Positions 14,101 through 37,594 of a stretch of DNA of 64,000 nucleotides are shown in pieces. The notes beneath the pieces were generated by a model. It saw nothing but the letters and a program-made list of their open reading frames with translations, did not search any database and was not told where the DNA came from. The position numbers and the translations under genes were made by a program. Position 1 is the first letter of the stretch. Every line of letters begins with the position of its first letter. Source of the DNA: a virus; IMG/VR virus record IMGVR_UViG_3300021541_000005. One strand, written 5' to 3'.

Positions 14101-14580
14101 AGAACAGGTAGAATATCAAAATCTGAAGCTAAAAAATTAGCAGAATCTATTGCTCATGATGTGCCTGTTTTAGATGATATATTAAATAATCAATTGAAAG
14201 AAGGTATGACATTATGGCGTGTACAAGAGAATCATAATTTAAGTTCCACCACGATTGGTGAGGTTATGGATTTCCCTAATTTCAGATCTACAGCTATTTC
14301 CAAAGAAGGGGCATTATGGTTCAGTAAAACTAACGCTAAAGAGATGAATTATTTAATTGAAATTGAGGCTCCAGCAGGTACTAAAGGAGCATATTTAGCT
14401 CCAATAAAACAAGGAGAAATAATAAATCCAACATCTCCTTTCGTAGGAGAGAAATATGCGAATGAAATGGAATTTTTATTAAAAAAATCTAAAGTAGAGT
14501 TGGTTAAATTCGAGGATAAAACTGTTAAAGGTGCTAATGGTGAAAAATTAAAACATATACTGTTAAGAATAGTGGGATGA
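11155..14580 (+). CDS. MuF/SPP1 gp7-like minor head protein fused to JAMM-like, helical-repeat and ADP-ribosyltransferase domains
   Basis: ARRIARTE, W-x4-D-x-RTR-x2-H and INCRC MuF motifs; HYH-x8-S-x2-D; TLWR / FRST / NEME R-S-ExE triad. Confidence 0.9.
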   Translation: MTQELEKQIKHINNSLFAAKMENIIQYMYEEELKTSVAGIFHSIRTEILKNLEEYYGDVLFNAHMDLILAPIHEHHKQYYDTIMKYKLKEHRKGRVQGKRLIARAKQYAKQYSKAYYGGAVKEDTINVPMNSIIKKDELFATSDYSAEQMRDKTFVASENTLARVDKDINGIITDGYRDGWGINDVANKIETRFNQLETWEARRIARTEIHGSHMQGVMNSYEDMGVEYLQWGAAHDNRTRDTHAALDGEIIPWNGVFSNGLRYPGDTNGPISEWINCRCGVLPWFCPPGMMVPVGMSNFRESDLLPLGTLGTGGDLLTQFQDEVSAIPKQSSSFDLDIINPKLIDSKFSIPNEDLSEFGITEKGMETIQRYTKRRIGSDIEYGVVFNEKNGKFLSKEFKGASNDIVLTKPNGKYSTIHYHTDEGFRPTSSGDFFEFLNSKNERVGINISRKESWFIKNEGKLTSKEINKITVDIDRLEQKQLKKLTDEYRKSSLKINKIKDPVKRQSAQKEFEKYVANEFLDKHNKELGDAILEYTSNIKGLKVKRVMHTEINPKSIKTISKKELKVDKRSFEELTGVKRHSTPINNKDYNKYALTSVEEKTLAKLEAEKDSLGMIEKRSYKELADRKEFNSLWNKILREGGNPNDVMELSGGEGVRYEKLMKKFKDWTPKGDIEIKPIQINKKTIFKDKDAFKLTSEEKQAYKKLKKNKGSLSTDEKEYYSQLSTKLQLHQKHQELIGNGLSETKSKTYVELYSRYRKQWNLPELSLDLKFTTQQKSFISYDYYKNATEFKLTKKEADKLYELEKKQLYGRKLTSNELKTMDELHNQQRFIYLNNINQTEKGLDYDATIEFKKLYKSLKTKLKLDKSVLEQPLTGYESKISLDKNPKNLKTFKGTNEEGLLPNGESLEKYFTKDAREMTIREQKVADRWLGSDYKAFTNFEVDCGRDVKKFEKWIYDMAKAYKEDNSLKYYQYYYDEITRRTGRISKSEAKKLAESIAHDVPVLDDILNNQLKEGMTLWRVQENHNLSSTTIGEVMDFPNFRSTAISKEGALWFSKTNAKEMNYLIEIEAPAGTKGAYLAPIKQGEIINPTSPFVGEKYANEMEFLLKKSKVELVKFEDKTVKGANGEKLKHILLRIVG

Positions 14581-14584
14581 TAAA

Positions 14585-14905
14585 ATGAAAAGAGCAGAAA
14601 TTATTAATATAAACTATTTGATTGATCATGCTGAAGATATTATAAATAACACTACTGTTCTATTTCCTCAATGGTTGTGGCGTAGATCCAAATGTTCTGA
14701 TGATGGTGAGCAGTTGCAGGATATTTGGGATCGTATGTATCAAAAACATCAAAGAGAAAGTGGCAATTGGTATATTTTCGGTAGAGGTGATCCTTGGATT
14801 AACCCTGGTGAAACATGGGACGAAGCTCAAGACCGCATAGTCAGAGAATATTGTGAAGCCACTGGCCACTGGGATTTATTCATATGGAAAGAGGTGAAAG
14901 AATGA
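14585..14905 (+). CDS. Orphan protein, candidate immunity protein 1
   Basis: Immediately downstream of the toxin-like domain, no structural motif. Confidence 0.5.
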   Translation: MKRAEIININYLIDHAEDIINNTTVLFPQWLWRRSKCSDDGEQLQDIWDRMYQKHQRESGNWYIFGRGDPWINPGETWDEAQDRIVREYCEATGHWDLFIWKEVKE

Positions 14906-15420
14906 AAGTACTTCAATTTGATTCACATTTCATCAATGATCATATGGATGAATTAGTTCATTTGGAAGACTATGTACCAGAAATATTATTTAGTTATTAT
15001 GATAAGCAAAATGAACGTGATAGATTCTTAAAATCTAAAAATTTATTAGAAACTATACATAAGATAGATCAATTATTGGATGAAAAATGTAAACTTTCAA
15101 AAAATCCAATTATGATAAGGAATAGTATTATCATTGAATGGTTAGATTGTCATCCTGAATTTGAAGGAATAATAGCTGGGGAATTCTGGGAAAAGTATCA
15201 AATGATGAAAAATAATAATGATTTTATTGAGTTTATTGATCTTTTATCTCAATTCAAATTTGCTTCTGAAGAACAAATTATAGCAAAATATGAATATCGT
15301 AATGATGTTATTCATAAAGATGATTCTAATAGAATGTTTCCTGATTTTAAAAAAATTGATGCTATTTTTAATAAATATGGGGCTTCTTTATTAGCATGTT
15401 ATTTATCAGAGTTTGTTTAA
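14902..15420 (+). CDS. Orphan protein, candidate immunity protein 2
   Basis: RBS gaggtga before ATG 14902, ATGA overlap; very AT-rich. Confidence 0.5.
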   Translation: MKVLQFDSHFINDHMDELVHLEDYVPEILFSYYDKQNERDRFLKSKNLLETIHKIDQLLDEKCKLSKNPIMIRNSIIIEWLDCHPEFEGIIAGEFWEKYQMMKNNNDFIEFIDLLSQFKFASEEQIIAKYEYRNDVIHKDDSNRMFPDFKKIDAIFNKYGASLLACYLSEFV

Positions 15421-15428
15421 TTTTTTTT

Positions 15429-15500
15429 AGTCCTATGGTGTAATGGCAATCATGGTGGGTTTTGGTCCCGCTGACTCAGGTTCGACTCCTGATAGGACTA
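15429..15500 (+). tRNA. tRNA-Gln (anticodon UUG), no encoded CCA
   Basis: AGTCCTA/TAGGACT acceptor, GTGGG-TTTTGGT-CCCGC anticodon arm, TCAGG-TTCGACT-CCTGA T arm. Confidence 0.95.
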
Positions 15501-15514
15501 TACAACTTTTTTTG

Positions 15515-15598
15515 GGTAGAATAGTCAAGTGGTCAAAGACGATGTGCTTAGGACTCATTCCTTTAGTAGGTCCGCAGGTTCAAATCCTGCTTCTACCA
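15515..15598 (+). tRNA. tRNA-Leu (anticodon UAG), long variable arm, no encoded CCA
   Basis: GGTAGAA/TTCTACC acceptor, loop CTTAGGA, variable arm CCT-TTAGT-AGG, GCAGG-TTCAAAT-CCTGC. Confidence 0.92.
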
Positions 15599-15895
15599 TT
15601 AACAATAATTTTTTGTGTTCACAAATAGGGCATGCTCCTTGCTTCTTTAAACTTTTTTTAACGGAAAACCTTCAAAAAAGCAAAATAACACTGGATGTTG
15701 TTGTTGAGGAAAATATTTTGTTTTCTGTGATTAACTGGTTTTCCATGCTTATTTTTTATTTTTGTTTAAGATTTATTTTTTTATTCGGGTAACTGTTCAT
15801 TTGGAAAAATTAAAACCCCGTATTTTCATTTTTCGTGTTTAATATTTTTTTAAAAAACTGTAATAATGTTCAAAAAATACCCTTAAAAAAGCAGG

Positions 15896-15925
15896 TTTTA
15901 TTTTTATGAGAGTGTATAATGAAGA
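15896..15925 (+). promoter_or_regulatory. 30-bp motif copy 2 (candidate late promoter of the head operon)
   Basis: Identical to 6138..6167; partial inverted copy TATACTCATAAAAA near 16043-16056. Confidence 0.6.
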
Positions 15926-16104
15926 AAGATATTTTTTTCTTCAAAATTTTGAACATATAGGAAAAAAGAGTATTAACATTTTTTTTCTAAAAAACACGAG
16001 TATACATAGTTAAATTTTAAAATTGGTATGGTACGACTTCTATACTCATAAAAAAAATTTAATACTCTATAATTTCTTCTTAATAAACTAATTTTAACCC
16101 AAAA

Positions 16105-17154
16105 ATGGAGGTATTAACTATTCAAATAAAAAACATGGCTGTGAAAAGTGATGATCAGTTCTTATTCACTGCTCCCGTAATGATACCAGACAAACCAGAT
16201 TGTGATTATGAAAGGGGAGAGGGAACATTCACAGCAGAAGAAATACGATTCTTTAAAGAATCATTTCAGGATTATCAAATCATTGATAAGAATCATCAAG
16301 TATTCAAGGAGTTAGGGAGTGCTAAAAGCATTAAAGACCAAATGGTTGGAGACCCTGTAAATAGTTTCATCCTCGATGAAGAAACTACTTACAAACTCGT
16401 TAATGGTGGTACAGAAACTTATCCTGCGGGTACTTGGATGTTAACTTCAGATGTAACAGATCCAACTACACAACAAGAAATTGAAGATGGTATATTAACT
16501 GGTTATAGTCTATCAGTGCATCGTGAAGATATTGGACGATTAATCAAGAAATACATGGCTACTAAAGCTAGTGGTGGTCAGTTAATTCATGATATACCAA
16601 ATCCTAATGCAATCACTGTGAGCATTGTAAAAAAACCTTGTCAAAGTGGATCTAAACAATGTAAATTAAATGGAAGTGATGTTATGGGTGATGACAAAAA
16701 GACACTTGATAAAATCAGAGAAGCTCTTGGTATGGATAACCCAGGATATGCTACTAAATCTGATTTGGATGCATTAGCTAAAGAAATTAAAGAGGAAAAT
16801 GCTGCGGCTATGAAGTCAGCAGCTGAAGAAATGGGCACTACTATAAGTGATGCTATTAAAGAGGCTTTTAGTGAAGTTGGTGCTATTAAATCTAAAAAAG
16901 AACCTGATAATGACGATGATGATAAGGGTGGTTCTGGTGACAATAAACCAGCAGATACTGATGGTAATGACTCAAAACCAAACCCTGATGATGACGACGA
17001 TGAGGAACTTAAGAAAAAATCTAAAAAACCTAAAAAAGATGGTTCTAAACAAGGAAAAGTACATAATGGAGCAACTAAATCCAATAATACTGAAGATTTA
17101 GACACTTATGCGTTCCTTGGAAGAAACCCAGATGGTACAAGTAAAAATATTTAA
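16105..17154 (+). CDS. Prohead protease (XkdF/S78-like) with C-terminal scaffold region; true start uncertain
   Basis: APVMIPDKPD, GTWML and DGILTGYSL motifs; acidic low-complexity tail; precedes capsid gene. Confidence 0.8.
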   Translation: MEVLTIQIKNMAVKSDDQFLFTAPVMIPDKPDCDYERGEGTFTAEEIRFFKESFQDYQIIDKNHQVFKELGSAKSIKDQMVGDPVNSFILDEETTYKLVNGGTETYPAGTWMLTSDVTDPTTQQEIEDGILTGYSLSVHREDIGRLIKKYMATKASGGQLIHDIPNPNAITVSIVKKPCQSGSKQCKLNGSDVMGDDKKTLDKIREALGMDNPGYATKSDLDALAKEIKEENAAAMKSAAEEMGTTISDAIKEAFSEVGAIKSKKEPDNDDDDKGGSGDNKPADTDGNDSKPNPDDDDDEELKKKSKKPKKDGSKQGKVHNGATKSNNTEDLDTYAFLGRNPDGTSKNI

Positions 17155-17196
17155 TTTTTATTCAAATTAATCAAAAAAAGTGATAGGTGATTAGTA

Positions 17197-18264
17197 ATGG
17201 TGAATATGAATAATGTGCTCACTAAAGTTGTAGCTGCTGCCGGAAAAGATGGTGCTATGAAAGAAGATGAGACAATGTACGATGCAATGTTTGCAAACGC
17301 TGGTATATTGGATAGAAAACAATATAACACTTTTGTACGTGAAATGCAAATCAACAGCGTTATTCTTAACGATGCAGCATTCAAAAGAATGACAAGAGAA
17401 TCTGAAGTAACTTCAGGTGCTAGAATCGAAGGAAGAGTATTGCAAGACGGACGTTTAAAAGAAAGTAGAACAACCAAAAGCGACTTAAAAGAAGCTAAAA
17501 TCGGTTTTGGTTCTGCTGAATTAAACGCTAAAAAATTAAAAGCAAAAACTTCCATTCTTGATGATGATCTTGATGACAACATCGAAGGAACACAATTTGA
17601 ATCTACCCTACAATCCATGATGGGTGCAGCAATGGGTGAAGACTTAGCTGCTATTGCTGTATTCGGGGACACTGATTTAGATTATGATGAAGAACTTTTG
17701 TTCCATACTTTCGATGGATGGGTTAAACAAGCAACTACTACTTTAAAATCAAGTGAATTAGGTTCTACTAATGCAGAAAAAGCATTTAATGTTCATGAAG
17801 ATACTATTGAAGCTTTATTTGATGCATTAATTGCAGCGGTACCTGCAAGAGTAAGACAATCAAATCTTATGAATAGATTTAATATTTATGTTCCTTTTGA
17901 AGTTGAAGATGCTTATAGGAATCTTTTAAAATCACGTAATACTGCACTTGGGGACAGTATGCAAGTCGGTGATGCTCCTTTAAAATACAAACGTTGGAAT
18001 GTTAAATATGCTCCAGAATTGGATGCTGAAGATTGTAAAGCATTAGATAACACTGCAACATGTCTTGGAGGATTCCCAGACTTAATGAGATGGGGTGTTT
18101 ACAAAGACATCAGCATGGAAATGGAACGTAAAGCTGGTGATGAACAAACTAACTTCTGGTATCGTATGAAAGGAGATGCTGGACTTGAAGTATTCAGCAG
18201 CTTAATTGTTGGAAAATTAACCTTAGAGGAGTTAGCTGAAATCCAAGATGAAGCCAAAGCATAG
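17197..18264 (+). CDS. Major capsid protein (HK97 fold expected)
   Basis: Size, position, EDLAAIAVFGD and late-gene codon usage. Confidence 0.85.
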   Translation: MVNMNNVLTKVVAAAGKDGAMKEDETMYDAMFANAGILDRKQYNTFVREMQINSVILNDAAFKRMTRESEVTSGARIEGRVLQDGRLKESRTTKSDLKEAKIGFGSAELNAKKLKAKTSILDDDLDDNIEGTQFESTLQSMMGAAMGEDLAAIAVFGDTDLDYDEELLFHTFDGWVKQATTTLKSSELGSTNAEKAFNVHEDTIEALFDALIAAVPARVRQSNLMNRFNIYVPFEVEDAYRNLLKSRNTALGDSMQVGDAPLKYKRWNVKYAPELDAEDCKALDNTATCLGGFPDLMRWGVYKDISMEMERKAGDEQTNFWYRMKGDAGLEVFSSLIVGKLTLEELAEIQDEAKA

Positions 18265-20103: not shown

Positions 20104-21135
20104 ATGAGTTGTAGAGTATTTGGTTTAGAACCAGAAGCTGCCTATGGTGAGGAAGTAGACAAAGATGATTTTCACTTACTTTTTGACCATGATGTAGACA
20201 GCATGGATTTTAAACTCAATGACGAACCGGTAACCAAAAGTTTCGGTTCAAGAATGAATCAAAAAGCAAGAGCTGGAGTAATCAAACCAACAGGTAGTAT
20301 AGAAACTTCAGCAAACCTCCAAATATTAGGAGCTTACTTTTACGGATTCTTAGATAATTATAAGTTCACAGCAGGCCAAAATGGTAAAAACACCCATGAG
20401 TTCTGGGGTGGTGAATCTAAATTATTAAAAAGTTTCAGAGGAAAAGCAGTTAACGACGATTTAATTTTCTACTTAATGGGTTTAATCGTCGATTCAATGA
20501 AACTCGAAGTATCTTCAGAAGACATGACTCTTGGAACTGACTTCATTTATAAAACAGAATTCTCTCAAATTTTAGCCGGTGAAAACGATTACGAAAGAGC
20601 CGAAGAACTAGAAGATGATTTATTCATAATGTTTTACGATGTCATGTTAAAACTCAATGGTAATGACCCTGCCGGCGTGCAGACAAGTTTTACCTTCGAA
20701 GGAAGTAACAATCATGACGTTGACAAAACAATAGGCTTTGGTTACAGACATCCACAGGGACAAGCAAAAGCAGGAAAAAGAGAAAACAGTATCAGCATTG
20801 TAACTACACTTACTCAAGAAACTGTAAGAGCAATATTAGATGCAAGATACGGTGATGTAGACCTTCTTGAACCTGCAAAATGTAAAATATTACAGGTCCC
20901 ATTACAAATTGATGTTGAATTATGTGAATATCCTGGCCTTGGATTAACTATTTTATTCCCTAAATGTACTCTCTTAGCTGAATTCGACAGTAGTGGTATT
21001 GATGATGTGGAAGCAACATTAAATATGGCTACATTAGGTTCTGAAGAGGTTACATTAGCCGATGGAACTACTAAGAAAACAGATATGTATGTTAAATTAG
21101 TCAATAAACAACCTAAGATAGCTCCCAGCATCTGA
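20104..21135 (+). CDS. Major tail tube protein
   Basis: Size, beta-rich character, position before chaperone and tape measure. Confidence 0.75.
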   Translation: MSCRVFGLEPEAAYGEEVDKDDFHLLFDHDVDSMDFKLNDEPVTKSFGSRMNQKARAGVIKPTGSIETSANLQILGAYFYGFLDNYKFTAGQNGKNTHEFWGGESKLLKSFRGKAVNDDLIFYLMGLIVDSMKLEVSSEDMTLGTDFIYKTEFSQILAGENDYERAEELEDDLFIMFYDVMLKLNGNDPAGVQTSFTFEGSNNHDVDKTIGFGYRHPQGQAKAGKRENSISIVTTLTQETVRAILDARYGDVDLLEPAKCKILQVPLQIDVELCEYPGLGLTILFPKCTLLAEFDSSGIDDVEATLNMATLGSEEVTLADGTTKKTDMYVKLVNKQPKIAPSI

Positions 21136-21385
21136 GGTGAATCCTGAAACTATTGATGATTTAGCAATAAGCGTAACTGATGGAACAAATCCTGTAAGTC
21201 AAGTTGAAGTTGCAATAGGAGAAATCACAGGCACTACTGGTAGTCAAGGTGGATGTACCTTGCATGATGTTCCTGTAGGCACGGTTACTGTAACAGCAAC
21301 TAAAACCGGTTACGTAACTTACAGTCAGGAAGTAACAATTACTTCTAGCACTGAAACTTTAGATATTACTTTAGAGCCTCAATAA
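21125..21385 (+). CDS. Ig-like (PEGA/carboxypeptidase-regulatory-like) domain, probably appended to the tail tube by +1 frameshift
   Basis: GTTGSQGGCTL...GTVTVTATKTGY; no RBS before GTG 21137; frame opens at CCC-A. Confidence 0.6.
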   Translation, partial: PASEVNPETIDDLAISVTDGTNPVSQVEVAIGEITGTTGSQGGCTLHDVPVGTVTVTATKTGYVTYSQEVTITSSTETLDITLEPQ

Positions 21386-22053: not shown

Positions 22054-25000
22054 ATGGTTTCTGAAAATATTGTTAAAATTATATTAAAAATGGAAGACCA
22101 AGCCACCCAAATGGCTCAAAAAGCAGATCAAGCTATTAGTAAATTAGGTAATACAGCACAAACCTCAAATCAAAAAGCATCACAATCTGCACAACAGTTG
22201 ACTCAAAAATATGAAAGTACTAATGATAGTATTAGGCGAGTGGGTCAGGCTGTTGAAAAAGTTGGTCAAAATGGTGCTAAATCATTTAATAATATGGGTG
22301 AGGCTACTCAAAAAGCTGTTATTAACTTTAATAGGTTAGATGAACAGTCCCAAAATGTTATTCGCCATATGGGTAATTTAGATGATGAAAGTAGACAAAC
22401 ATTCCTTGGAATGTATAGTTATGCTCAGGATGCTATATCTAAATTTGATGCTTTACAAAATGAAACTAGAACTTGGGGCACAACTTTTGATTATACTAGA
22501 AGTAAAATGCAGCTAATGGGTACTAATGTTGACTCATTAAAAGGTAAAATACAAGTTGTAGGTTCCAGTATTACAACTCATTTAGGTAATAAATGGGATA
22601 CTATCAAATCAAAAGTAACTGTTTTTGGAAATTATATCACAAGCCATTTGTCTAGTGCATTATCTACTGTTAGAAGTAAAATTCAAAGTTTAGGTGATGC
22701 TTTTACTGGTATTGGTGGGGTAATCTCAACAGTATTTGGTGGGATTGGTTTAAAAGCAATGACAGATATGACAATAGGCGCATCAATTAACAGAGATAGG
22801 ATTAAATCATTATCTTTTGCAATGTTGGGTTATGGAGAGTCATTTGAATCTTTTAGCAAAGGAATATGGAAACAAATGGACTCTATGACAAATGCTAGTT
22901 TAGTGTCTTTGGATCAATTATCTCAAGCAGCATCTGTTGTAAAAATGAGCACTAATGCATCAAAAGAACAAATGAAAGAATTATTGCCTGTATTAAATGA
23001 TATAGGTCAAAGAGCCATATTGATGGGTAAATCTGGTGATGAGGCCATGGGACTTATGCAGGCAGCAGGTAAAGGTCTCAACGGCGAATTTGAAATGCTC
23101 AGAGAAAACTTTGGTATCACAAAAGAAAAACTTGAAAATGCCGGATGGAATGGTAGTGCAGAAGATATTGATGGTTATACTCAAGCATTAAAAAAGTGTT
23201 TAGCAGAAAGTGGTGACGTCAATGGTATGATGGATACTACTTCTGGGAAAATTACACGATTACAGAAAATGTGGAATGTTTCAGCTAGAAGTTTAGGTGA
23301 TCAATTTAAACCAGCTCTAGATCAAGCACTAAATTCTCTACTCAAATTTCTTGATGCAGATAATAATGGAGAAATAGATAAACAGGCTCAAGGATGGGTT
23401 CAATGTGCTGTCGGTGCTATGACAGCAGCAAGTGCTTTTGCAACATTAGCTCCATCAATCGCTCCAGCGTTACAAGTAATGGATATGTTTTTCAGTAAAG
23501 GTAGGGCAGTATTAACATTTTTAGGTTTACTTGAAGCTGAGGAGGGTGCTTTAACAGCTTCTACTTTAGCGAATACTATAGCTGAGAAAGCAAATGCTAT
23601 TGCAAAAGCAGCAAAAGGCGTTACAACAGCTGAGTTAACTGCTGAAGAGGTGGCTCTTGGTGCTGCTGAAGCAGGTTTAACTGCTGAAGAAATTGCTGCT
23701 GCGGCTGCCCATGCAGGAAGTGCTGTTGCTATGACTGCTGAAGGTGCTGCTGCTGTAACTGCTGCTGGTGGAACAACTACTTTAACTGGTGCTTTATGGG
23801 GAATGACTACTGCATTATTGTCTAACCCTATTACATGGATTGTTGTAGCATTAGTTGCTTTGGCTGTTGCTGTTTATGAAGTAGGTAAAGCATTTGGATG
23901 GTGGAAAGATATTCCAACATTACTTGCAGCGGTTTGGTCAGGAATACAAAGGATGTGGAATGCATTTATTAATCATCCTGATGTTAAAGCAGTGATTGGA
24001 GTTTTAGTTACTGCTTGGAATAGTCTTGTTTCTGCTATAGGATGGGTAATAAGTAAAGTTGAAGAGTTCTTTGGTATTCATATTAATGGGGAATTTGATG
24101 TTGTTCATGCTATTATCGAAGGAATTGGCGTTGCATGGCAAGTAATAACTATGCCTATCCGTACTGTAATTAGCATTATACAATTTTTAATACCTGTGTT
24201 TCAATCTGTTGCTTCAGCAGTGCAGACTGCTCAAAGTAAATTTGGTGCTTTCGGAGGATTTTTAGCTACTATGGCCTCTCCAATAATCTTTGTATGGGAA
24301 TTATTAAGAAAAATTGTATGTATATTGCTCGGTTGTAGTCCAGGTATTGTTCCAGCATTACAAAGAACTTGGGAAGTATTTCAGGAAGTATTCAATGCTA
24401 TTGCAGGATTTATTGGTGGTATTATTTCACCTATTGTGGAATCTATTAGGCCTTTAATTGATATTTTTGTGGAAATAGTAACGTATCTTGTTGAAATGTT
24501 TATGCCTGCATGGGATTTACTCAGTAATATATTATTGGTAATCTGGAATGCAGTATCTCAGCTTATTAATATTTTCCAGGCATTTCTTAGTGGTCAAATT
24601 ACTTTACCTCAAATGTTGAATATGATCTGGAATTTGATTTTGACTGCATATATGACAATTTTAACAATGATTATTAATTTTGTCTTCCAATGGGCAGGTC
24701 AAATTGTAAGTGCAGCAATTAATGCTGCTTCAGGTTTTGTTAATGGTATTATTACTTATATTAGTGGTTTACCTGGCAGATTCTTTAGTTATTTGGCTCA
24801 AACTACTAGTAATATTATTAATGCTGGTGCTCAATGGGTTAATACTGCTAGGCAAAAAGCTAGTGAAATGGTTAACAGTGCTTCAACTACTGTACAACAA
24901 TTACCCGGTAAAATTTATACGGAGTTTACTAAGGTTCCTGATCGTATACGTGAAGCTATACCTCAGGCTATAGCTGCTGCATTAAACTTTGGTAAAGAAA

Positions 25001-26775
25001 TTATTAATGGTGTACTCAACGCTATGGGTATACATTCACCAGGTATTATTCAAAATAGTATTACTGATGAATTCAAGAACTCTGTTCAAAAGATTAAGGA
25101 TGCTATTAAGCCGGCTGGTGAGTATGCAAGGCAAGTTGGTGCAGAGATAGTTGATAAATTTGGTGAACCGAAATTATCATTGGATACTGATGATTTAATG
25201 CCTTATTATGATTTGGATGAAAATCCGTTAGAAAATGTTGATTTAGCCAGTATGGATTTATCTAGTGTGTCTGGTGGTTTGGATTCTGCAATGGGTATGA
25301 CTGATGATACTAATGTTATGATTGGTGAATCTTATGATGCATTAGCAACAATGATGATGACTACTTTGCAGAATATGGTTTTACAGGATCAATTTGCTTA
25401 TGGTCAAATTCAGTCTAATGATTTAGCTACTTTCCAGAATATTAGTACTGGTTTGAACTTGAATTTGTTGTCTATGAGTAATAATCTTCGTACTCAGTTA
25501 AATCTTATGTTATTAACTCATCGTACTGCTATGACTAGTGCTACTAATACTACTCGTCAGCAATTGGCGTTAATGTTGAATGAAACAATGAAAGTCACCA
25601 GTGAGATGAGGTCTGCATGGGCGGTAATGGCAGACAGTATAATAAGTGCTGCTGCAAGGATTAAAAATGAAGCTACTGCTTACTTTGACCAGTTATCTTC
25701 TACGATTGGTACTTTTTACAGGAAATTGCAGAATCCATCACAGTGGGCTGGTGGTGATTCTACTGGATCACCTTCTACTATAAGGCGTGTTGGTCGTGAC
25801 CCTGCGGTTATGACTCGTATCACTCGTGGTGTGGCTAATAGTTTAAGACGTGATAATCAATTGCCTTACACTATTACTGCGGTTAAAGCGATGGATAATG
25901 GATTGGTTAGTCCTGTAACCTTGGAGTATATGGATAAAACTGCATCTGATAATTTAAATCTTATTGATTTGATTCAACGTGGTGCCTGTCCTAATTGTTT
26001 TGCTGGTGGATGGGATGCTGTTGCAGATCCAAACATTGCTTATATTAAGCAGACTGCTCGTGAGTGGCAAATGAAAGGGCCTGCTGTGCATACTGGTGTT
26101 GGTGATATTGACACTGGTTTATCTTTCCGTGTTAAAGACTTTGAAGGTGGAACACCGCATATTAGTTGGGAATCCTTTGTTAGGATTGCTACGGCGATTG
26201 CTAGTGCAATACCTTATGAATTGTACTACAATAGTGATGCTCATGGCTCTTGGCAAAATGCTATTGCTGCGGGTTCATGGAATTGTTATGATGGTGCTTC
26301 TGCAATGGTGGCTCTTGCAAATACCTGTGGTTATGGTGGTTATGTTGATTGTGGTTTGAATTGGGGTGGTTTTGGTCATTGTGCTGCTATTATTAATGGT
26401 TATACTTTCGATACAACTGCTTTAAGGCAACGTGGTGGTTGGACTGCTGGTCCATGCAGTTATAGTCATCCGGCACCATCTGCTGGAGGTCCAATTAATG
26501 TTCATATTCCTGGAGGCAGATCTGCTCCACGTACACATTCCAATCCATTAGAAGGATTATTTGACAATAATAATTCTAGGGGTAATGTTGAAGAGGTTAA
26601 ATTAACATTAGAACATAAAGTGGATGTTACTGTTGATGGTAATGTTGAAAATATTGGTACTGATGCATTAATCAAAGAATTAACTGAGTCAGTCACTGAT
26701 AAAAGATTGATTGACCGTATTGCTGATGCATTAATTAAAAGGGATAAACGTATAGCTCGTATGGGAGGTGCATAA
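22054..26775 (+). CDS. Tape measure protein with C-terminal cysteine-peptidase-like domain
   Basis: 1573 aa, Ala-rich helical repeats, NPITWIVVAL, W-spaced repeats; NCYD...GH...D near C terminus. Confidence 0.92.
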   Translation: MVSENIVKIILKMEDQATQMAQKADQAISKLGNTAQTSNQKASQSAQQLTQKYESTNDSIRRVGQAVEKVGQNGAKSFNNMGEATQKAVINFNRLDEQSQNVIRHMGNLDDESRQTFLGMYSYAQDAISKFDALQNETRTWGTTFDYTRSKMQLMGTNVDSLKGKIQVVGSSITTHLGNKWDTIKSKVTVFGNYITSHLSSALSTVRSKIQSLGDAFTGIGGVISTVFGGIGLKAMTDMTIGASINRDRIKSLSFAMLGYGESFESFSKGIWKQMDSMTNASLVSLDQLSQAASVVKMSTNASKEQMKELLPVLNDIGQRAILMGKSGDEAMGLMQAAGKGLNGEFEMLRENFGITKEKLENAGWNGSAEDIDGYTQALKKCLAESGDVNGMMDTTSGKITRLQKMWNVSARSLGDQFKPALDQALNSLLKFLDADNNGEIDKQAQGWVQCAVGAMTAASAFATLAPSIAPALQVMDMFFSKGRAVLTFLGLLEAEEGALTASTLANTIAEKANAIAKAAKGVTTAELTAEEVALGAAEAGLTAEEIAAAAAHAGSAVAMTAEGAAAVTAAGGTTTLTGALWGMTTALLSNPITWIVVALVALAVAVYEVGKAFGWWKDIPTLLAAVWSGIQRMWNAFINHPDVKAVIGVLVTAWNSLVSAIGWVISKVEEFFGIHINGEFDVVHAIIEGIGVAWQVITMPIRTVISIIQFLIPVFQSVASAVQTAQSKFGAFGGFLATMASPIIFVWELLRKIVCILLGCSPGIVPALQRTWEVFQEVFNAIAGFIGGIISPIVESIRPLIDIFVEIVTYLVEMFMPAWDLLSNILLVIWNAVSQLINIFQAFLSGQITLPQMLNMIWNLILTAYMTILTMIINFVFQWAGQIVSAAINAASGFVNGIITYISGLPGRFFSYLAQTTSNIINAGAQWVNTARQKASEMVNSASTTVQQLPGKIYTEFTKVPDRIREAIPQAIAAALNFGKEIINGVLNAMGIHSPGIIQNSITDEFKNSVQKIKDAIKPAGEYARQVGAEIVDKFGEPKLSLDTDDLMPYYDLDENPLENVDLASMDLSSVSGGLDSAMGMTDDTNVMIGESYDALATMMMTTLQNMVLQDQFAYGQIQSNDLATFQNISTGLNLNLLSMSNNLRTQLNLMLLTHRTAMTSATNTTRQQLALMLNETMKVTSEMRSAWAVMADSIISAAARIKNEATAYFDQLSSTIGTFYRKLQNPSQWAGGDSTGSPSTIRRVGRDPAVMTRITRGVANSLRRDNQLPYTITAVKAMDNGLVSPVTLEYMDKTASDNLNLIDLIQRGACPNCFAGGWDAVADPNIAYIKQTAREWQMKGPAVHTGVGDIDTGLSFRVKDFEGGTPHISWESFVRIATAIASAIPYELYYNSDAHGSWQNAIAAGSWNCYDGASAMVALANTCGYGGYVDCGLNWGGFGHCAAIINGYTFDTTALRQRGGWTAGPCSYSHPAPSAGGPINVHIPGGRSAPRTHSNPLEGLFDNNNSRGNVEEVKLTLEHKVDVTVDGNVENIGTDALIKELTESVTDKRLIDRIADALIKRDKRIARMGGA

Positions 26776-26778
26776 ATA

Positions 26779-27558
26779 ATGGAGAAAATAAGTGTTAACC
26801 CTGGTAGATGCCGTGTTCATGGTAATATTATAGGTTACAAATATGGTTATTTGGAAACTGATATTGGTTTTCAAAGCCATAAATGTGAAGTGGCATTGAA
26901 TCCCACACAATCAAAAGGATATGAGGATTTTGATGTCTATTCTTTTGCTTTAACAAAAAATTCGAACTTAGTTAATAAGTTTAATGATAGTATTGCTTAC
27001 TGTAGTGAAACAGATATTGATGCTATAGGTGGTTTTCTTTATGTTTGTGAGCATTTTGATAGTACATTTGATCCAATAGAATCTATTGCGAATATTCAAA
27101 ATTTCACTAATGGTTATAAATTGGTGGTGAAAAATGATTATCTAGTTAATGGGGTGGACAATACCTCTCCATTTTACCTTTTAATCCATCAAAACGGTAC
27201 AGGTGTAGCCATACCATCTGGTACAACAAGGATATTGTTCAGTACTACTTATGAAGCCTCACAACATATCAGTAGCATTAAAGTAGGCTTTGTTTATTTC
27301 GATAAAAACCATAATTATATTTCCAGTAAAGAAATAACTGATATTGCAAATGTCGCAACGGGCAATCGTGGACGTTGTAATGTACAAACAACTAACATAC
27401 CATCCAATGCTAAATATGTGAGTGTTGAATTCCATTTCAAAAATGGTGTAGGACAATACACAAATACCTCTGGAATATTGAAAAACGATTACTTTAGTAT
27501 GGAATTAAACTGTTTACTCTTTAACCAAACTTATGGAGGTTTTGTTAAAAATGGCTAG
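26779..27558 (+). CDS. Tail-associated protein, beta-rich
   Basis: Follows tape measure; IPSNAKYVSV carbohydrate-binding-like C terminus. Confidence 0.55.
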   Translation: MEKISVNPGRCRVHGNIIGYKYGYLETDIGFQSHKCEVALNPTQSKGYEDFDVYSFALTKNSNLVNKFNDSIAYCSETDIDAIGGFLYVCEHFDSTFDPIESIANIQNFTNGYKLVVKNDYLVNGVDNTSPFYLLIHQNGTGVAIPSGTTRILFSTTYEASQHISSIKVGFVYFDKNHNYISSKEITDIANVATGNRGRCNVQTTNIPSNAKYVSVEFHFKNGVGQYTNTSGILKNDYFSMELNCLLFNQTYGGFVKNG

Positions 27559-30373
27559 AGTAACATTATATCCAGTATGGGAAAATAACACTGGAATGCG
27601 TAATGTTAATGGTAATACTGGTATCTATCGTGAGATGGAGGATATTCAGGGATTACATGATACAACCATTTATGGGCATTGGGGTAATGAAGACCCTGGA
27701 GCAGGTTATATGTATGCCGTCGCTTCGGTTAATGGTGGTAAATTTAAGCCTTCACAGATTGAAGTCACTAATTTCCATGTACTCGATAATATACCAGCTA
27801 ATGCTCGTATTAAAAGCATTCAGGTTGAGTATGAGTATGCGAAATTTGCGTATCCTAATATGGGTCATGGATCATTCGGCCAACCTGTGATTAGCATACC
27901 TACATTAGGTTTGTTTGCACCGGGTAATGCTCCACCTAAAGATGTTCTCACAGCATATAATGTTAAATTTGATGATTTAAAATTTACCGCAGAGGATTTG
28001 GCGGATGTCAAGGTTACTTTTGATTTACCAATGAACACGTCAGCGAATCCTGCTTATGTGAAAATGAACTATCTTAGATTAAATATTGAATATATAGTCC
28101 CGAATTATGTTCCACAGGTTAGTTTCGGTTTGAATAGTATTGAGTATGGGATGGAAGCTCCTGTTACGGTTGAAGTAATTGATACTAATAATGCTATATC
28201 TGTTGCTGATGTGGATTGTACTGTAATAGTCACTCCTGGATTAAGGCTTGTGGATGGTAGTGTTAATTGCAGTGGAACATTTGACCCTGCTAATCATGTA
28301 TGGCATGCAAAAACCAATAATGGTAAAGCAACATTAACATTTAAGGTCACACCTGCGGATCCGAGTGTTCAAGGTTTGAATAATGTTAATGCTTATGTTT
28401 TCATGGATTCATCAACTATTCATTCATCTGTAGAATCATTGTATATTACACCGCAAAAAGCTTATCTTTTGGAATGCAGTGTATCTGAAAATGCTATAAA
28501 ACAAAGTCTAAACAGTAGGCATTATACATTATTCACTTTAACAGTGCAGAATAATGCCCGTACACCTTTAGACGTTCATTTAGATTTTGATAAACTGGAA
28601 TATGAAGGCACCCTTGAAGGTTATGATGAAGATACAAAAACTTTAACAATCACTGAATGGGATGGAAATAATTATTTCGATGTTCAATTAAGGGTGTATA
28701 GTACTGTTTTAGAGGATGCTCAAATCATATGTTACAGTTCAGCATGGACTGGAGTAACAAAGATAAAAGTGAATGTAAATGAAGAGTTTGACTATGAAGA
28801 GTATTATACAGAGTTAAATGCACCATTATTTACTTTAGAAAATATGCAAGGTACAAACGGTCAAGAATATGTTTTCGGCTGTCTTTGTAGAGTTACAGGA
28901 ACAAATAATATCATTAAAGGCATGAAAAATGCACGTGCTTCTGTATTAAATAATGGGGAAAAATTCACATCTAAAGTGTCACAAATAGGTTCATGGCAGT
29001 TATTGGCTGTTAAATTTACTTATAATGAATCTAAAAAGTTGTCTTTCCGTTTTTATGGTAATTATATTGAGGTTGATCAGGGTAAAATTGAGTTTGGTAA
29101 TCTTTTTGTGATTCATGCTGATTATTATTCAGGTTATGAATATCCTGCTTTGGCTTTTGAAGAGTTACATTCTCTTATTACAAATGAGGATTATACTAAT
29201 CTTTTATTAGAACCTCCAGAAAAGAATCCGTCAAGCAGACATTATTTTGATTTAATTGACTGGATGGGTTTGGAGGATAATCAATATTTGATACCTCATG
29301 GTTTGGAAGTTACTGGAGATATTTCTGCTGAAGAAACTATAGGCATTACATTAGGTTTTGGCCACAAAGGTATAGATGAATTTGACTTTATTTCCGATAG
29401 TTTAAACATTGATGAGAATACTCAAACATTCAAGTTCGGAGGTAAATTTGAAACCTTGGGTTTGAGTTTTACAGACATCTCCACTTTATTAAAAGACATT
29501 GCTTTCTATCTACAAATTGATGACATGTATGATAATCAAACACCCATCAACGTTCAAATGAAAAACGTAAAAATAACCCTCTACTATAGCCTGAACAGTG
29601 ATTGCTGGGAATTCTTTATCAATGGTGTTTCATCAAAACACTACTTATTAGACCTTCAAGCAGATAGTGAAATACCAAGAGGTGCTAAATACGATGTTAA
29701 TAAATTCAAAGTTGACGGTGCTGATGGTGAATATCCAAACAGAATTAATCTCAAAGGAAACAAATTAAAAATAAAATTTGGGACCTGTGAATGTGGAACT
29801 ATTGAAGACTTAACATATCTATTAGAACATGTTGTAGAATGGTTATATCCTGAAAGAGATAGTCTAGATAACCCTTTATTGAAAACAATAAGTTTCTTTT
29901 ACGCTCCTGATGTAGGTTATGATTATTACATCGAAGATACAATGGATGCTGAAGCTGTAGACGGTGCTTATGAATGTGAAGTAGAACTAATTGTACCTTC
30001 AGGACTGGCCCGCAATCTTCATGAAACAGAAAGTTCTGCAACAGGCCATACAGGCCACATGGGTAAAGTAAAACCAGTAATATTATTCTACATCTTAAGC
30101 CATGACAGTGAAATAATTGTAATTGAAAGCAAAACCGGTCAAAAATTAACAGTAACTGGAGAATTCATTGATAATTTACCATTAAACACATTGTTAAAAC
30201 TTGACTGTGGAAATCGTAAACTTTACTACGAATCCTATGGTGAATGGTTTGATATAGATCCAAATTGCATTACACTAGACAGTGATTTCTTTACCTTAGC
30301 AGGTTATTTTGATTTTTCAACTAGTGTCAACTGCAAAATATCTGAAGTAAAATACTATGAATTAAAAGGGTGA
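27551..30373 (+). CDS. Large distal-tail (Dit-like) protein with N-terminal adhesin/DUF11-like modules
   Basis: PGLRLVDGSVNCSGTFDPANHVWH DUF11-like segment; C-terminal Dit-like region beginning FFINGVSSK. Confidence 0.6.
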   Translation: MARVTLYPVWENNTGMRNVNGNTGIYREMEDIQGLHDTTIYGHWGNEDPGAGYMYAVASVNGGKFKPSQIEVTNFHVLDNIPANARIKSIQVEYEYAKFAYPNMGHGSFGQPVISIPTLGLFAPGNAPPKDVLTAYNVKFDDLKFTAEDLADVKVTFDLPMNTSANPAYVKMNYLRLNIEYIVPNYVPQVSFGLNSIEYGMEAPVTVEVIDTNNAISVADVDCTVIVTPGLRLVDGSVNCSGTFDPANHVWHAKTNNGKATLTFKVTPADPSVQGLNNVNAYVFMDSSTIHSSVESLYITPQKAYLLECSVSENAIKQSLNSRHYTLFTLTVQNNARTPLDVHLDFDKLEYEGTLEGYDEDTKTLTITEWDGNNYFDVQLRVYSTVLEDAQIICYSSAWTGVTKIKVNVNEEFDYEEYYTELNAPLFTLENMQGTNGQEYVFGCLCRVTGTNNIIKGMKNARASVLNNGEKFTSKVSQIGSWQLLAVKFTYNESKKLSFRFYGNYIEVDQGKIEFGNLFVIHADYYSGYEYPALAFEELHSLITNEDYTNLLLEPPEKNPSSRHYFDLIDWMGLEDNQYLIPHGLEVTGDISAEETIGITLGFGHKGIDEFDFISDSLNIDENTQTFKFGGKFETLGLSFTDISTLLKDIAFYLQIDDMYDNQTPINVQMKNVKITLYYSLNSDCWEFFINGVSSKHYLLDLQADSEIPRGAKYDVNKFKVDGADGEYPNRINLKGNKLKIKFGTCECGTIEDLTYLLEHVVEWLYPERDSLDNPLLKTISFFYAPDVGYDYYIEDTMDAEAVDGAYECEVELIVPSGLARNLHETESSATGHTGHMGKVKPVILFYILSHDSEIIVIESKTGQKLTVTGEFIDNLPLNTLLKLDCGNRKLYYESYGEWFDIDPNCITLDSDFFTLAGYFDFSTSVNCKISEVKYYELKG

Positions 30374-30377
30374 TTAG

Positions 30378-32894
30378 ATGATTGTAATTTTAGATCATGA
30401 TGAAAACATCCTTGAATTCATGGATGATGCAGATGCCAGTGTTGAAATCACAGACACTTACGGAGGATATAATTCTTTAGATTTAGATTGTGAATTAACT
30501 GATGTAAAAAAAGACCAATACCTCTTTAAACAAGGAAACAAACTGTTGATAAATAATATTCTTTTTGTAATTAATACTGAGGTTGAAGTGGACTATGTGG
30601 ATAATTTAATACATTTAGAAGCTGAAGAACTGGTCTATGAGTTAAATAATTGTGAACCATTCTATATTAATGATCCAATTTTTAAACAATATGTTTCAGG
30701 AAAAACAATTAAAATATCTTTCAACATGTTAAACTTACTATTCAAAGGATTTTACACTGTTGATGCTACAGATTTAAATGAAATAAGCTATGATAAGAAG
30801 TATGTTACTGTACAGGGAACAATTACAAAGTATAATCTTCTTAAAGAGATTGAAACGGCCACAGGATTAATGTTTAAATACCATTATGCTTTAGATGGAA
30901 ATAAAGTCATTAAAAAGGTGAGTCTGCTTAAACCTGAAAACTATGGAGTAACACATTCACAGCTCCTGGAACGTGTAACTGTAGGTGAAAATACAAATAA
31001 ACTGGAATATAGTAGTGATGAAACCAAAAACGCCCTTGGAATAATGCCTATTATCAAATCAGAAAACAATAGTAATGTTGATTATAATAAAATTTTACAA
31101 CAATTTTATAATTTAGACATTAACAACGAAAGAATAATGCCTTATTATGTAAATTACAGTGTTTTAGAAGAAAACTTCCTAAGTGCTGCTAAAACGCTAC
31201 ATGAAAAGATTACTACTTTTGGCATTATCCCAGATACTATTCCTATGATTTTTGATGATGATGAAATAATACCTGTAGGAATGAGCCAATTTGTCGATAT
31301 GGCAACAAAATATTTGATAAACTCGGATGAAGTTATACATCTAATTATTGTAGAACCTCCAAGCATTACACATGGTGACCGCTTAAACTGTGTTTTTGAA
31401 GAAACAGAGATTAACAACTTAGCCTACACTGTCCAAGATTATATCGCAAAAACAGGTCATATTAACACTACTATTTCAACAGGCCATGGGCGATTAAGTT
31501 TCCAATGGTTAATCTACATATTTGCAGAATATTTAACTACAAAAAAGAAAGTAGTCTGTAAATCTGAAGATTATCCTAATTTAAATAAACTTCTACCTTC
31601 TGAAGTACAATATAATGTACGTCGCATTGTTGACACTGATAATTATGAGTATATGCCTTACGTTTACACCCAAAATACCAGTGAATCAAATAACATTCCG
31701 TATCAAACACCAATGAATCCATTACCTGGGAAAAACATGTATGACTTAAATAATTACATTAGTGAATCATATCCACAAATGGTCATAACAAAAACAGCAG
31801 GTGTAGAAAACATCACTATAACAATATCTAAACAAAATATTAGTCAAAACACACCAGAATCTTTCGTAATAGGATTCCGTGATGTGAATCTAATACAGGA
31901 TGGTACGGATATTACAATAGATTTCAATAAACAGGAAATCGTTTTCATGAAATTCTTTGAATGGATTGAAGAAAAAGAAGTTGAAGTTACAGAATCCATA
32001 CCTGCCGATGATGTTATAACAGTCAATATGATGCCTTCCTGTGGTTGCTGCGGTTACCCAAAAACACCATACAAACGCTTCACGAAAACATGGAAAAATT
32101 ACTGTCCAAACTGTAAAAAATCAGGTACTTTAACAGATAATCCTAAAGGCGTTTATGAAGGTGAAATAACTTGCAGTATGAAAAAAGGCGGATGTGACGC
32201 AGACTACTGCGGATACTGCGGCGGTGACAAATGGGGTGGTGGAAAATGTGCTAGAGTAAAATTAACTCCTGCTGAAGCAACCACCGAAGAAACACGCACC
32301 GAAACGATACAGGAAGTACATCAAGAATATAAAGAAGTCACAGCTAATGATGACAATAACGGAGAGGATGAAACTAAAATAAGATTAAATCAAATACTAA
32401 CAGAAAACTCAAAATTAGACTCATGGCATGGAGATATAAGTATAAAAATCGAAGGAGCAACATTAAAAAGTCTAAAATCAGATTCCGTTAAATTATATGA
32501 ATTAGCACCATTCCCTTATGTAAAAGAGAAAGGTGACATGTTTATTCATGCTCCTATAACCTCAGCAGATTTCTACTATACTCACATGACAAATGACAAT
32601 CCAAAATTAGAACCCTTTGAAACTTCAGAACAATCCATCGAGGAAGTTTTAATCGGCTGCTGGAAAAAATTAAATGGTTCTGGTGATAATACGAATTGGT
32701 TAGAAAAATCAGAGGATATTGAAGTAGATTTAACTGAAGAAAACTTGGATTTAGAAGCTGGAGACTTTGTATATATCAAACTACCTGATAGTATGGTGTT
32801 CAAGGCACAAATTACAGAGAAAAAATATGATCCAAAAATCAAATCAGATTCCAAATTAAAAATTGGAAACGTTTCCAGGGAGGCAATTGTATGA
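30378..32894 (+). CDS. Tail tip/hub (Tal-like) protein with pseudomurein-binding-like and Cys-rich inserts
   Basis: MIVILDHDENIL N terminus and GDFVYI...AQITEKKYD C terminus typical of phage tail hub proteins. Confidence 0.65.
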   Translation: MIVILDHDENILEFMDDADASVEITDTYGGYNSLDLDCELTDVKKDQYLFKQGNKLLINNILFVINTEVEVDYVDNLIHLEAEELVYELNNCEPFYINDPIFKQYVSGKTIKISFNMLNLLFKGFYTVDATDLNEISYDKKYVTVQGTITKYNLLKEIETATGLMFKYHYALDGNKVIKKVSLLKPENYGVTHSQLLERVTVGENTNKLEYSSDETKNALGIMPIIKSENNSNVDYNKILQQFYNLDINNERIMPYYVNYSVLEENFLSAAKTLHEKITTFGIIPDTIPMIFDDDEIIPVGMSQFVDMATKYLINSDEVIHLIIVEPPSITHGDRLNCVFEETEINNLAYTVQDYIAKTGHINTTISTGHGRLSFQWLIYIFAEYLTTKKKVVCKSEDYPNLNKLLPSEVQYNVRRIVDTDNYEYMPYVYTQNTSESNNIPYQTPMNPLPGKNMYDLNNYISESYPQMVITKTAGVENITITISKQNISQNTPESFVIGFRDVNLIQDGTDITIDFNKQEIVFMKFFEWIEEKEVEVTESIPADDVITVNMMPSCGCCGYPKTPYKRFTKTWKNYCPNCKKSGTLTDNPKGVYEGEITCSMKKGGCDADYCGYCGGDKWGGGKCARVKLTPAEATTEETRTETIQEVHQEYKEVTANDDNNGEDETKIRLNQILTENSKLDSWHGDISIKIEGATLKSLKSDSVKLYELAPFPYVKEKGDMFIHAPITSADFYYTHMTNDNPKLEPFETSEQSIEEVLIGCWKKLNGSGDNTNWLEKSEDIEVDLTEENLDLEAGDFVYIKLPDSMVFKAQITEKKYDPKIKSDSKLKIGNVSREAIV

Positions 32895-37486: not shown

Positions 37487-37594
37487 ATGAAGAAATCTGA
37501 TCCTCATAAAGGTTGTTGTTATAGGCGAACTTGTAATAAAGACTTGAAAAAATGTTGCTATTTATATAAAAAGGTGAAAAAATGGGAATTTTAG
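37487..37594 (+). CDS. Small basic Cys-rich peptide, 35 aa (not in ORF track)
   Basis: MKKSDPHKGCCYRRTCNKDLKKCCYLYKKVKKWEF behind RBS ggggag. Confidence 0.4.
   Translation: MKKSDPHKGCCYRRTCNKDLKKCCYLYKKVKKWEF

Follow-up and report, generated by a model that had tools for sequence, protein, structure and literature searches.

PeiW and PeiP are proven pseudomurein endoisopeptidases, which use a Cys-His-Asp triad to cut the ε-Ala-Lys isopeptide bond and need reducing conditions (PMC2989375). In bacteriophage T5, the tape measure protein pb2 carries a muralytic metallopeptidase in its C-terminal part, behind a hydrophobic segment and a cleavage site. This part occupies the tail tip and is the first to be expelled, so as to digest the wall, after which the hydrophobic part forms a channel (PMC10038345). 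Wall hydrolases carried on tape measures are well known in bacteriophages. The passage of archaeal viruses through pseudomurein is undescribed, and where pseudomurein enzymes come up in a 2024 review of how archaeal viruses enter and leave their hosts, it is for egress only (PMC10791045). Here we analyze a 64,000-nucleotide stretch of viral DNA (IMG/VR record IMGVR_UViG_3300021541_000005, the window), in which the tape measure protein of the tail (TMP) contains, close to its C-terminus, a domain with a predicted Cys-His-Asp triad that is related to the one in PeiW and PeiP. What appears to be new here is that the carrier protein comes from an archaeal virus and that the predicted enzyme is of the cysteine type and presumably directed at pseudomurein. 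A peptidase on the TMP offers a concrete hypothesis for how the wall is passed, and one that is testable in the cultivable MSTV1/M. smithii system.

We found no paper describing this TMP module in the full-text literature, a search that did not cover Medvedeva et al. 2023 (Nat Microbiol) and the MSTV1 supplements. The MSTV1 paper labels the homologous gene as a tape measure only and leaves the module unmentioned. The analysis below contributes a conservation count over 188 sequences, an unbiased ranking of related folds, and the recognition of host proteins linked to pseudomurein-binding repeats (PMBR) as the apparent nearest kin of the viral domain.

A conserved Cys-His-Asp triad in the tape measure protein

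The TMP gene lies on the + strand at positions 22054–26775 and encodes 1573 amino acids in a single open frame. An initial annotation of the window had pointed to three motifs near its 3' end, and all three are in frame in this gene, at exactly the codons that were named. Cys1411 (TGT, 26284–26286, + strand), the predicted nucleophile, is in the motif SWNCYDGA and aligns to the Cys in NC(T)D of PeiW and PeiP. His1442 (CAT, 26377–26379, + strand), the predicted general base, is in FGHCAAII and aligns to the GH of PeiW, PeiP and the host transglutaminase-like proteins discussed below. Asp1453 (GAT, 26410–26412, + strand) is the predicted third residue of the triad and begins a D-T-T motif (FDTTA). 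The same annotation had the TMP ending in a peptidase domain at 26150–26470. A C-terminal peptidase domain is indeed predicted near these positions, but the protein does not end in it, as about 108 residues follow, and the folded module starts at about residue 1340, upstream of 26150.

An exhaustive phmmer search over 1.84 billion representatives, with residues 1300–1480 as the query, returned 208 clusters (50% identity) at E ≤0.001, with 128 at E ≤1e-10. Nearly all of the matches are in proteins of 1300–2000 residues, with the match located shortly before the C-terminus. Homologues from two database searches, with identities down to ∼30%, were combined into an alignment of 188 domains. Asn1410 and Cys1411 are present in all 188 homologues, His1442 and Asp1453 are each present in 187, and Thr1455 is present in 186. 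Asp1413 is retained in 179 of the 188, with His in the other nine. Outside of these motifs, Tyr1391 (188/188) and Tyr1388 (187/188) are retained as well, and Gly1426 and Gly1449 are nearly invariant. The motif pattern is far above chance. Among 14 full-length TMPs, the mean identity is 0.64 over the domain and 0.32–0.48 over the N-terminal two thirds of the protein.

The open reading frame (ORF) at 22054–26775 is a siphovirus tail tape measure protein. Besides phrog_1272 (E 1.6e-36) and phrog_58 (E 1.2e-28), over 10 other tape-measure PHROGs match it, it is the longest tail gene and is in the expected place, and it contains internal hydrophobic segments. A further profile, phrog_38386, which represents a family of unknown function, matches with an E of 2.8e-244 and spans the C-terminal module. 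The gene order runs from the tail tube (Phage_tube_2, 20104–21135) through the TMP to the tail-tip genes, and the tail genes of MSTV1 have the same order. On the 3' side of the TMP are fibre genes and a 946-residue ORF (27533–30373) whose match to Dit is borderline (phrog_202, E 9e-4). We also considered whether the domain has its own gene or an internal start; this was ruled out, since the frame runs through without a break and sites resembling promoters or terminators occur about as often as expected by chance.

Predicted fold and nearest relatives

An AlphaFold2 model built from a 32-row alignment has a mean pLDDT of 83 and a pTM of 0.73, and pLDDT rises to 88–95 over the catalytic core. 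In this model, a helix (model residues 112–125) begins with Cys1411, His1442 is on the long strand that comes after it (141–148), and Asp1453 is just past the next one (151–153). A Cys at the start of a helix with His and Asp on adjacent strands is, as modelled, the papain/transglutaminase arrangement. We compared the model to known structures with a Foldseek-independent fold search of 48,161 representative chains, which ranked TglA (Z 8.5), PeiW (8jx4, Z 8.0), LapG (7.6) and PeiP (8z4f, 7.4), followed by 3isr (7.0), the transglutaminase 4xz7 (6.7) and TgpA (5.8), with NATs, vasohibins and PNGase also found. The top of the list consists nearly entirely of transglutaminase/papain-like enzymes. 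The alignment with PeiW 8jx4 has a Z of 8.0–8.3 and a root-mean-square deviation of 2.7–2.8 over 96–99 residues. Foldseek against the PDB gave no match at E ≤0.001; its E-values are weak, with probabilities of 0.93–1.00 for 3isr, PeiP, PeiW, the transglutaminase 4xz7 and CPR-C4. The remainder of that list contains NATs, menin, TgpA and LapG, with a few axonemal/central-pair cryo-electron microscopy chains as the exceptions. The VIA re-alignment and the wide fold search were more informative than Foldseek. We consider it nearly certain that the domain at about residues 1340–1470 has a transglutaminase-like/papain-type enzyme fold.

The sequence comparisons lead to the same enzymes. A phmmer search of the PDB with the C-terminal 291 residues of the TMP gave chance matches only (an endo-β-1,2-glucanase, E 0.23), and because single-sequence searches were uninformative, a family profile was needed. 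Against all PDB sequences, this profile matched PeiW 8jx4 with an E of 1.1e-4 and PeiP 8z4f with an E of 3.4e-4. With E allowed up to 10, no further chain of a transglutaminase-like protein or a peptidase appeared; the remaining rows trace to the helical portion of the tape measure in the alignment. Alignment of the family to PeiP with hhalign gave a probability of 88.7% (E 2.6e-6) over 84 columns, the Cys and His motifs among them. The initial annotation had called the domain PeiW-like and had named the absence of a papain-like fold as one result that would speak against it. The papain-like fold is predicted, PeiW and PeiP are listed by both Foldseek and the fold search, and homology to the Pei enzymes is evident in the profile and hhalign matches as well as in the NCxD...GH...D order and the YxFYYN motif that they have in common.

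The module can be divided along the model and the alignment. In its N-terminal part, residues 1300–1369 (25951–26160, + strand), helices and a small β-sheet lead into the core (helix 21–37 and strands 40–60 of the model), and W1320, I1331, W1338, P1343, F1363 and P1368 are conserved; the alignments with the LapG and NAT structures begin at model residue 46. The predicted catalytic core, a transglutaminase-like/Pei-like cysteine peptidase by its pLDDT and its profile and fold matches, spans residues 1370–1465 (26161–26448, + strand). The C-terminal tail, residues 1466–1573 and the stop codon (26449–26775, + strand), is made up of a linker rich in Gly and Pro and an end that is charged and conserved; residues 1501–1573 have a mean identity of 64% among the 14 TMPs, and no Pfam family matches the tail. 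The ∼108 residues after the core in this TMP compare with a median of 83 after the matched stretch across the 188 homologues.

A hidden Markov model (HMM) of the domain alone, built from the 188 sequences, was searched in 329 Methanobacteriota genomes (Methanobacteria families only), and 297 of them contain matches. In about 30 genomes the matches are strong (E <1e-30) and lie in frames of 1200–1800 residues; these are provirus tape measures. Nearly every genome has, in addition, several matches of 48–62 bits in frames of 300–1500 residues. We scanned six such proteins and found Transglut_core in all six (82–92 bits), PMBR in five, immunoglobulin-like (Ig-like) domains in some and a weak Peptidase_C71 match in three. 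These host proteins correspond to the transglutaminase-type adhesin-like proteins known from M. smithii and M. stadtmanae (PMC11532034). The matches are near-universal in the phylum, although one genus has none in seven genomes and another has them in 14 of 24.

With this HMM, PeiP, PeiW and the MSTV1 Pei reach just 26 bits each. In the core alignment, YxFYYN, NCxD and GH are common to the TMP, host and Pei groups, but the TMP domain has 26–32% identity to the host domains and 19% to PeiP, and after the His strand the host domains have ADAT or ADGT where the TMP has D-T-T. A quick tree of 97 columns, from an alignment fitted to the TMP HMM and indicative only, splits the Pei sequences from the remainder (SH-aLRT 96) and groups the TMP and host domains together, apart from Pei. 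Within it, a clade of its own with good support (SH-aLRT 98) unites 23 of the 24 host domains, and the TMP domains do not resolve as a single clade over these columns. Judged by sequence, the nearest relatives of the TMP domain are the host PMBR-linked transglutaminase-like proteins rather than Pei. The domain may be called PeiW-like, but the Pei enzymes are not its closest kin: the host proteins with PMBR and Transglut_core reach 50–62 bits against 26 for Pei, and the C71 threshold is missed. One pseudomurein-associated branch of the transglutaminase superfamily would unite viral endolysins, TMP domains and these uncharacterised host proteins. Two Methanobacteriaceae frames score between the TMP and host levels, one of 1064 residues (L016:2711–5902, − strand, 85 bits) and one of 651 residues (L017:1261–3213, − strand, 64 bits). 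No Pfam family matches either frame, and they may be shorter tape measures or other carrier proteins.

Among named viruses, a tblastn search of 50,697 phage records found the module in only seven records, from five different viruses, all of which infect Methanobacteriales: MSTV1, the M. gottschalkii virus vir075, PhiF3, vir249 and Drs3. The named homologues come from Methanobrevibacter and Methanobacterium (including Methanobacterium paludis); a distant homologue, P0167, is on a contig with a virus tail module and no host marker. In GenBank, the label "prominin" is attached to the Drs3 homologue, and the MSTV1 homologue is entered only as a "putative tape measure protein". Searching a six-frame translation of psiM2 with the domain HMM, where the regions of concern are the tape measure ORF21 (14685–18245) and PeiP (22562–23479), gave the endolysin PeiP as the sole match. 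The module is thus present in some Methanobacteriales virus lineages and absent from others.

Proposed role and alternative explanations

The invariance of the triad, the predicted fold and the Pei relationship suggest that the TMP domain is an intact and probably active Pei-related cysteine peptidase. Its position in a TMP leads us to favor, as reasonably likely, a virion-borne entry lysin that cuts pseudomurein. In this mechanism, the peptidase would be carried inside the virion tail, with the C-terminus of the TMP at the tail tip by analogy with T5 pb2. Opening of the tip on the host would expel the TMP with its C-terminus leading, and the peptidase would locally cut peptide or isopeptide bonds in the pseudomurein sacculus, allowing the tail to reach the membrane. 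A central hydrophobic stretch of the TMP, residues 584–880 (23803–24693, + strand), could then insert into the membrane as a DNA conduit. By Kyte-Doolittle analysis (19-residue windows, score ≥1.6), this stretch contains six segments that are candidate membrane-inserting helices (584–615, 644–666, 697–723, 740–769, 801–845 and 858–879), and about 460 residues separate it from the peptidase, which is itself followed by the conserved tail. We infer the presence and orientation of the domain in the virion, the pseudomurein substrate, the bond that is cut and the role in entry; the enzyme is read as a thiol-dependent pseudomurein peptidase because this combines the logic of T5 pb2 with the chemistry of PeiW and PeiP. 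Hydrolysis by Pei enzymes was reportedly assayed by Schofield et al. in 2015 on sacculi or synthetic peptides.

Several observations weigh against an entry lysin, or against so specific an assignment. Full-text searches turned up no measurements of enzyme activity, virion proteomics or infection for this TMP or a homologue, and the nearest relatives, the host PMBR-linked proteins, are themselves uncharacterised. The tape measure of psiM2 (ORF21) is without the module, so the module is not indispensable. Neither is the domain, with its identity of 0.64, more conserved than the remaining C-terminal third of the TMP (0.60–0.70). The window domain scores 13.5–17.2 bits on Pfam Transglut_core (PF01841; best E 0.0065), for which the threshold is 23; the window sequence has no Peptidase_C71 match (PF12386, threshold 22 bits) at E up to 1, and a weak C71 match occurs in five of the 32 relatives (best E 0.0012). 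No PMBR (PF09373) match is present anywhere in the TMP. Because both Pfam thresholds are missed and the binding repeats are absent, the domain is a subfamily apart from C71 and Transglut_core. The fold scores, Z 8–8.5, are only middling by the tool's own scale; we assign the fold despite this because the top of the list is nearly all from one superfamily and the sequence evidence agrees. Finally, the fold fits not only wall hydrolysis but also transamidation, acyl transfer, deamidation and protein-specific proteolysis.

An enzyme that makes bonds rather than breaking them, a transglutaminase or acyltransferase, could covalently tether the expelled TMP or the tail tip to pseudomurein peptides, or cross-link tail proteins in assembly. 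The nearest Pfam family is in fact Transglut_core, which matches 23 of the 32 relatives at E up to 1 (best E 1.7e-6), true transglutaminases and N-acyltransferases are in the fold list at Z 5–7, and the host PMBR-linked relatives could be wall cross-linkers. We nonetheless consider a transferase unlikely: PeiW and PeiP, the only characterised pseudomurein-associated members, are hydrolases, the known enzymatic modules of TMPs are muralytic, and no acyl-acceptor or donor partner is evident. It is also quite improbable that the domain is a maturation protease, which would process the TMP or other tail proteins in assembly and have no role at the wall. Processing near the C-terminus does occur in the TMPs of lambda and T5, where pb2 is cut after R1127 (PMC10038345), and an invariant triad suits any protease role. 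That known processing, however, is not carried out by a protease on the TMP itself, the psiM2-type TMPs manage without the domain, and its specific kin are wall-associated, being PMBR-linked, or wall-lytic. Confinement to viruses of pseudomurein hosts, moreover, is something that an assembly protease would not need.

TMPs enter the cell envelope, and enzymes of the transglutaminase fold include many effectors and protein-specific proteases, with LapG, SseI, Ceg10 and vasohibin all in the fold list. An injected or surface effector that cuts adhesin-like, S-layer, membrane or cytoplasmic proteins of the host would fit these observations. The sequence-level kin are instead PeiW/PeiP and PMBR-linked proteins, not effector families, and no targeting signal is seen, so we rate an effector as a distinctly doubtful explanation. 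The absence of separate binding repeats, together with a location where TMPs contact the tail-tip plug, would allow the domain itself to bind the wall as a non-catalytic module or plug that keeps only the fold. The retention of Asn-Cys in 188/188 homologues and of His and Asp in 187/188, down to ∼30% identity, is typical of catalysis and not of binding alone, and it makes this last alternative very improbable.

An extension of the entry-lysin reading, which we put forward tentatively and regard as possible rather than probable, is that tailed viruses of methanogens with pseudomurein walls captured a wall-remodelling transglutaminase-like domain from host PMBR-linked proteins into the TMP. This would make it the first virion-associated lysin from archaea, acting from outside without binding repeats, perhaps on a different bond from PeiW, PeiP and PeiR. 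If true, this would explain how these viruses cross a thick wall, and "lysis-from-without" enzymes of a new class would become available against methanogens of the rumen and gut. PeiR is already in use for methane mitigation (PMC6189367), and enzymes of the kind predicted here are of interest both for that purpose and for methanogen permeabilisation.

Genome setting and comparison with described systems

The 64,000-nucleotide window consists of about 1.5 head-to-tail copies of a 42,415-bp unit, as bases 1–21585 are identical to bases 42416–64000 with zero mismatches. The TMP is also found on a 219,700-bp database contig that holds about 5.2 units of 42,415 bp. The tandem units could be an assembly or replication concatemer, a wrapped circular genome or a real tandem array. 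The unit, which has a GC content of 33%, is the genome of a Methanobrevibacter tailed virus or provirus. Its large terminase is 42% identical to the terminase of Methanobacterium virus Drs3, and it also has genes for a portal, a MuF-like head protein, a prohead protease, the tail tube protein, an integrase, an ERF recombinase and fibre proteins. The nearest proteins in the databases are those of Methanobrevibacter millerae and other Methanobrevibacter metagenome bins.

Some neighboring genes have features of their own. The head protein at 11155–14580 (+ strand, 1141 residues) carries a Phage_Mu_F domain within residues 1–290, and its long C-terminal extension matches only DUF4329, and that weakly. 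Directly 3' of the tail tube gene is an 82-residue frame (21137–21385, + strand) with a CarboxypepD_reg/PEGA Ig-like match (E 1.7e-8), which is consistent with a recoded extension of the tail tube. In the tail-hub protein (838 residues), the stretch at 31104–31592 (+ strand) has no match to any Pfam family, PMBR included, at E up to 10.

A second candidate wall enzyme is encoded at 37582–38712 (+ strand), where PHROG, Pfam and PDB matches point to an endolysin whose N-terminal half is Ig-like and whose C-terminal peptidase is C39-like (PeiR-type). In the C-terminal half, the endolysin families matched are phrog_6007 (E 1.3e-6) and phrog_1519, the match to Peptidase_C39_2 is weak and below threshold (E 0.0086), and the solved structure PDB 22oc_A ("P210 WT") matches with an E of 6.4e-24. 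The N-terminal half has Ig-like/CarboxypepD_reg domains in place of pseudomurein-binding repeats. Viruses of animal-gut Methanobrevibacter have been reported to have PeiR-like C39 endolysins (PMC11375127), a report that this candidate fits, and the virus would then have two different wall enzymes. The initial annotation had likewise assigned the virus two wall peptidases, the TMP domain and a C39 endolysin, and had called them unrelated. The pair stands, as candidates, but "unrelated" does not: C39-like and transglutaminase-like peptidases are different families that both belong to the broad papain-like superfamily (PMC10318531).

PeiR itself, from the M. ruminantium prophage phi-mru, is a virus-encoded cysteine peptidase that is active on the Methanobrevibacter wall, and the candidate TMP domain is likewise viral and of the cysteine type. 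PeiR differs in being C39-like and in being encoded by a separate gene in the lysis position, from which it acts from within at egress. With T5 pb2, the TMP shares its overall design, a long helical tape measure with a hydrophobic stretch followed by a C-terminal domain that degrades the wall, or in the TMP is predicted to. The T5 enzyme is a zinc metallopeptidase that acts on the murein of Bacteria, whereas the TMP domain would be a cysteine peptidase that acts on the pseudomurein of Archaea, and the likeness would be one of mechanism, with no homology implied.

The closer comparisons are with enzymes of the same fold. By score and identity, the host PMBR-linked transglutaminase-like proteins are closest to the TMP domain and share the D-x-T after the His strand, but they are cellular proteins with binding repeats, Ig-like domains and a membrane anchor, and they score 82–92 bits on Transglut_core against 17 for the TMP. 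PeiW (prophage psiM100) and PeiP (phage psiM2), the members of MEROPS C71, share with the TMP domain the transglutaminase-like fold, which matches at Z 7.4–8.3, the order of the triad and the YxFYYN, NCxD and GH motifs, and all are encoded by viruses of pseudomurein-walled methanogens. The identity over the core is only ∼19%, and the His-to-Asp spacing of the TMP domain is short (11 residues), like that of Transglut_core and unlike that of PeiW and PeiP. Finally, PeiW and PeiP are free late-gene endolysins with an N-terminal PMBR domain, whereas the TMP domain is without PMBR and is part of a structural protein of the virion.

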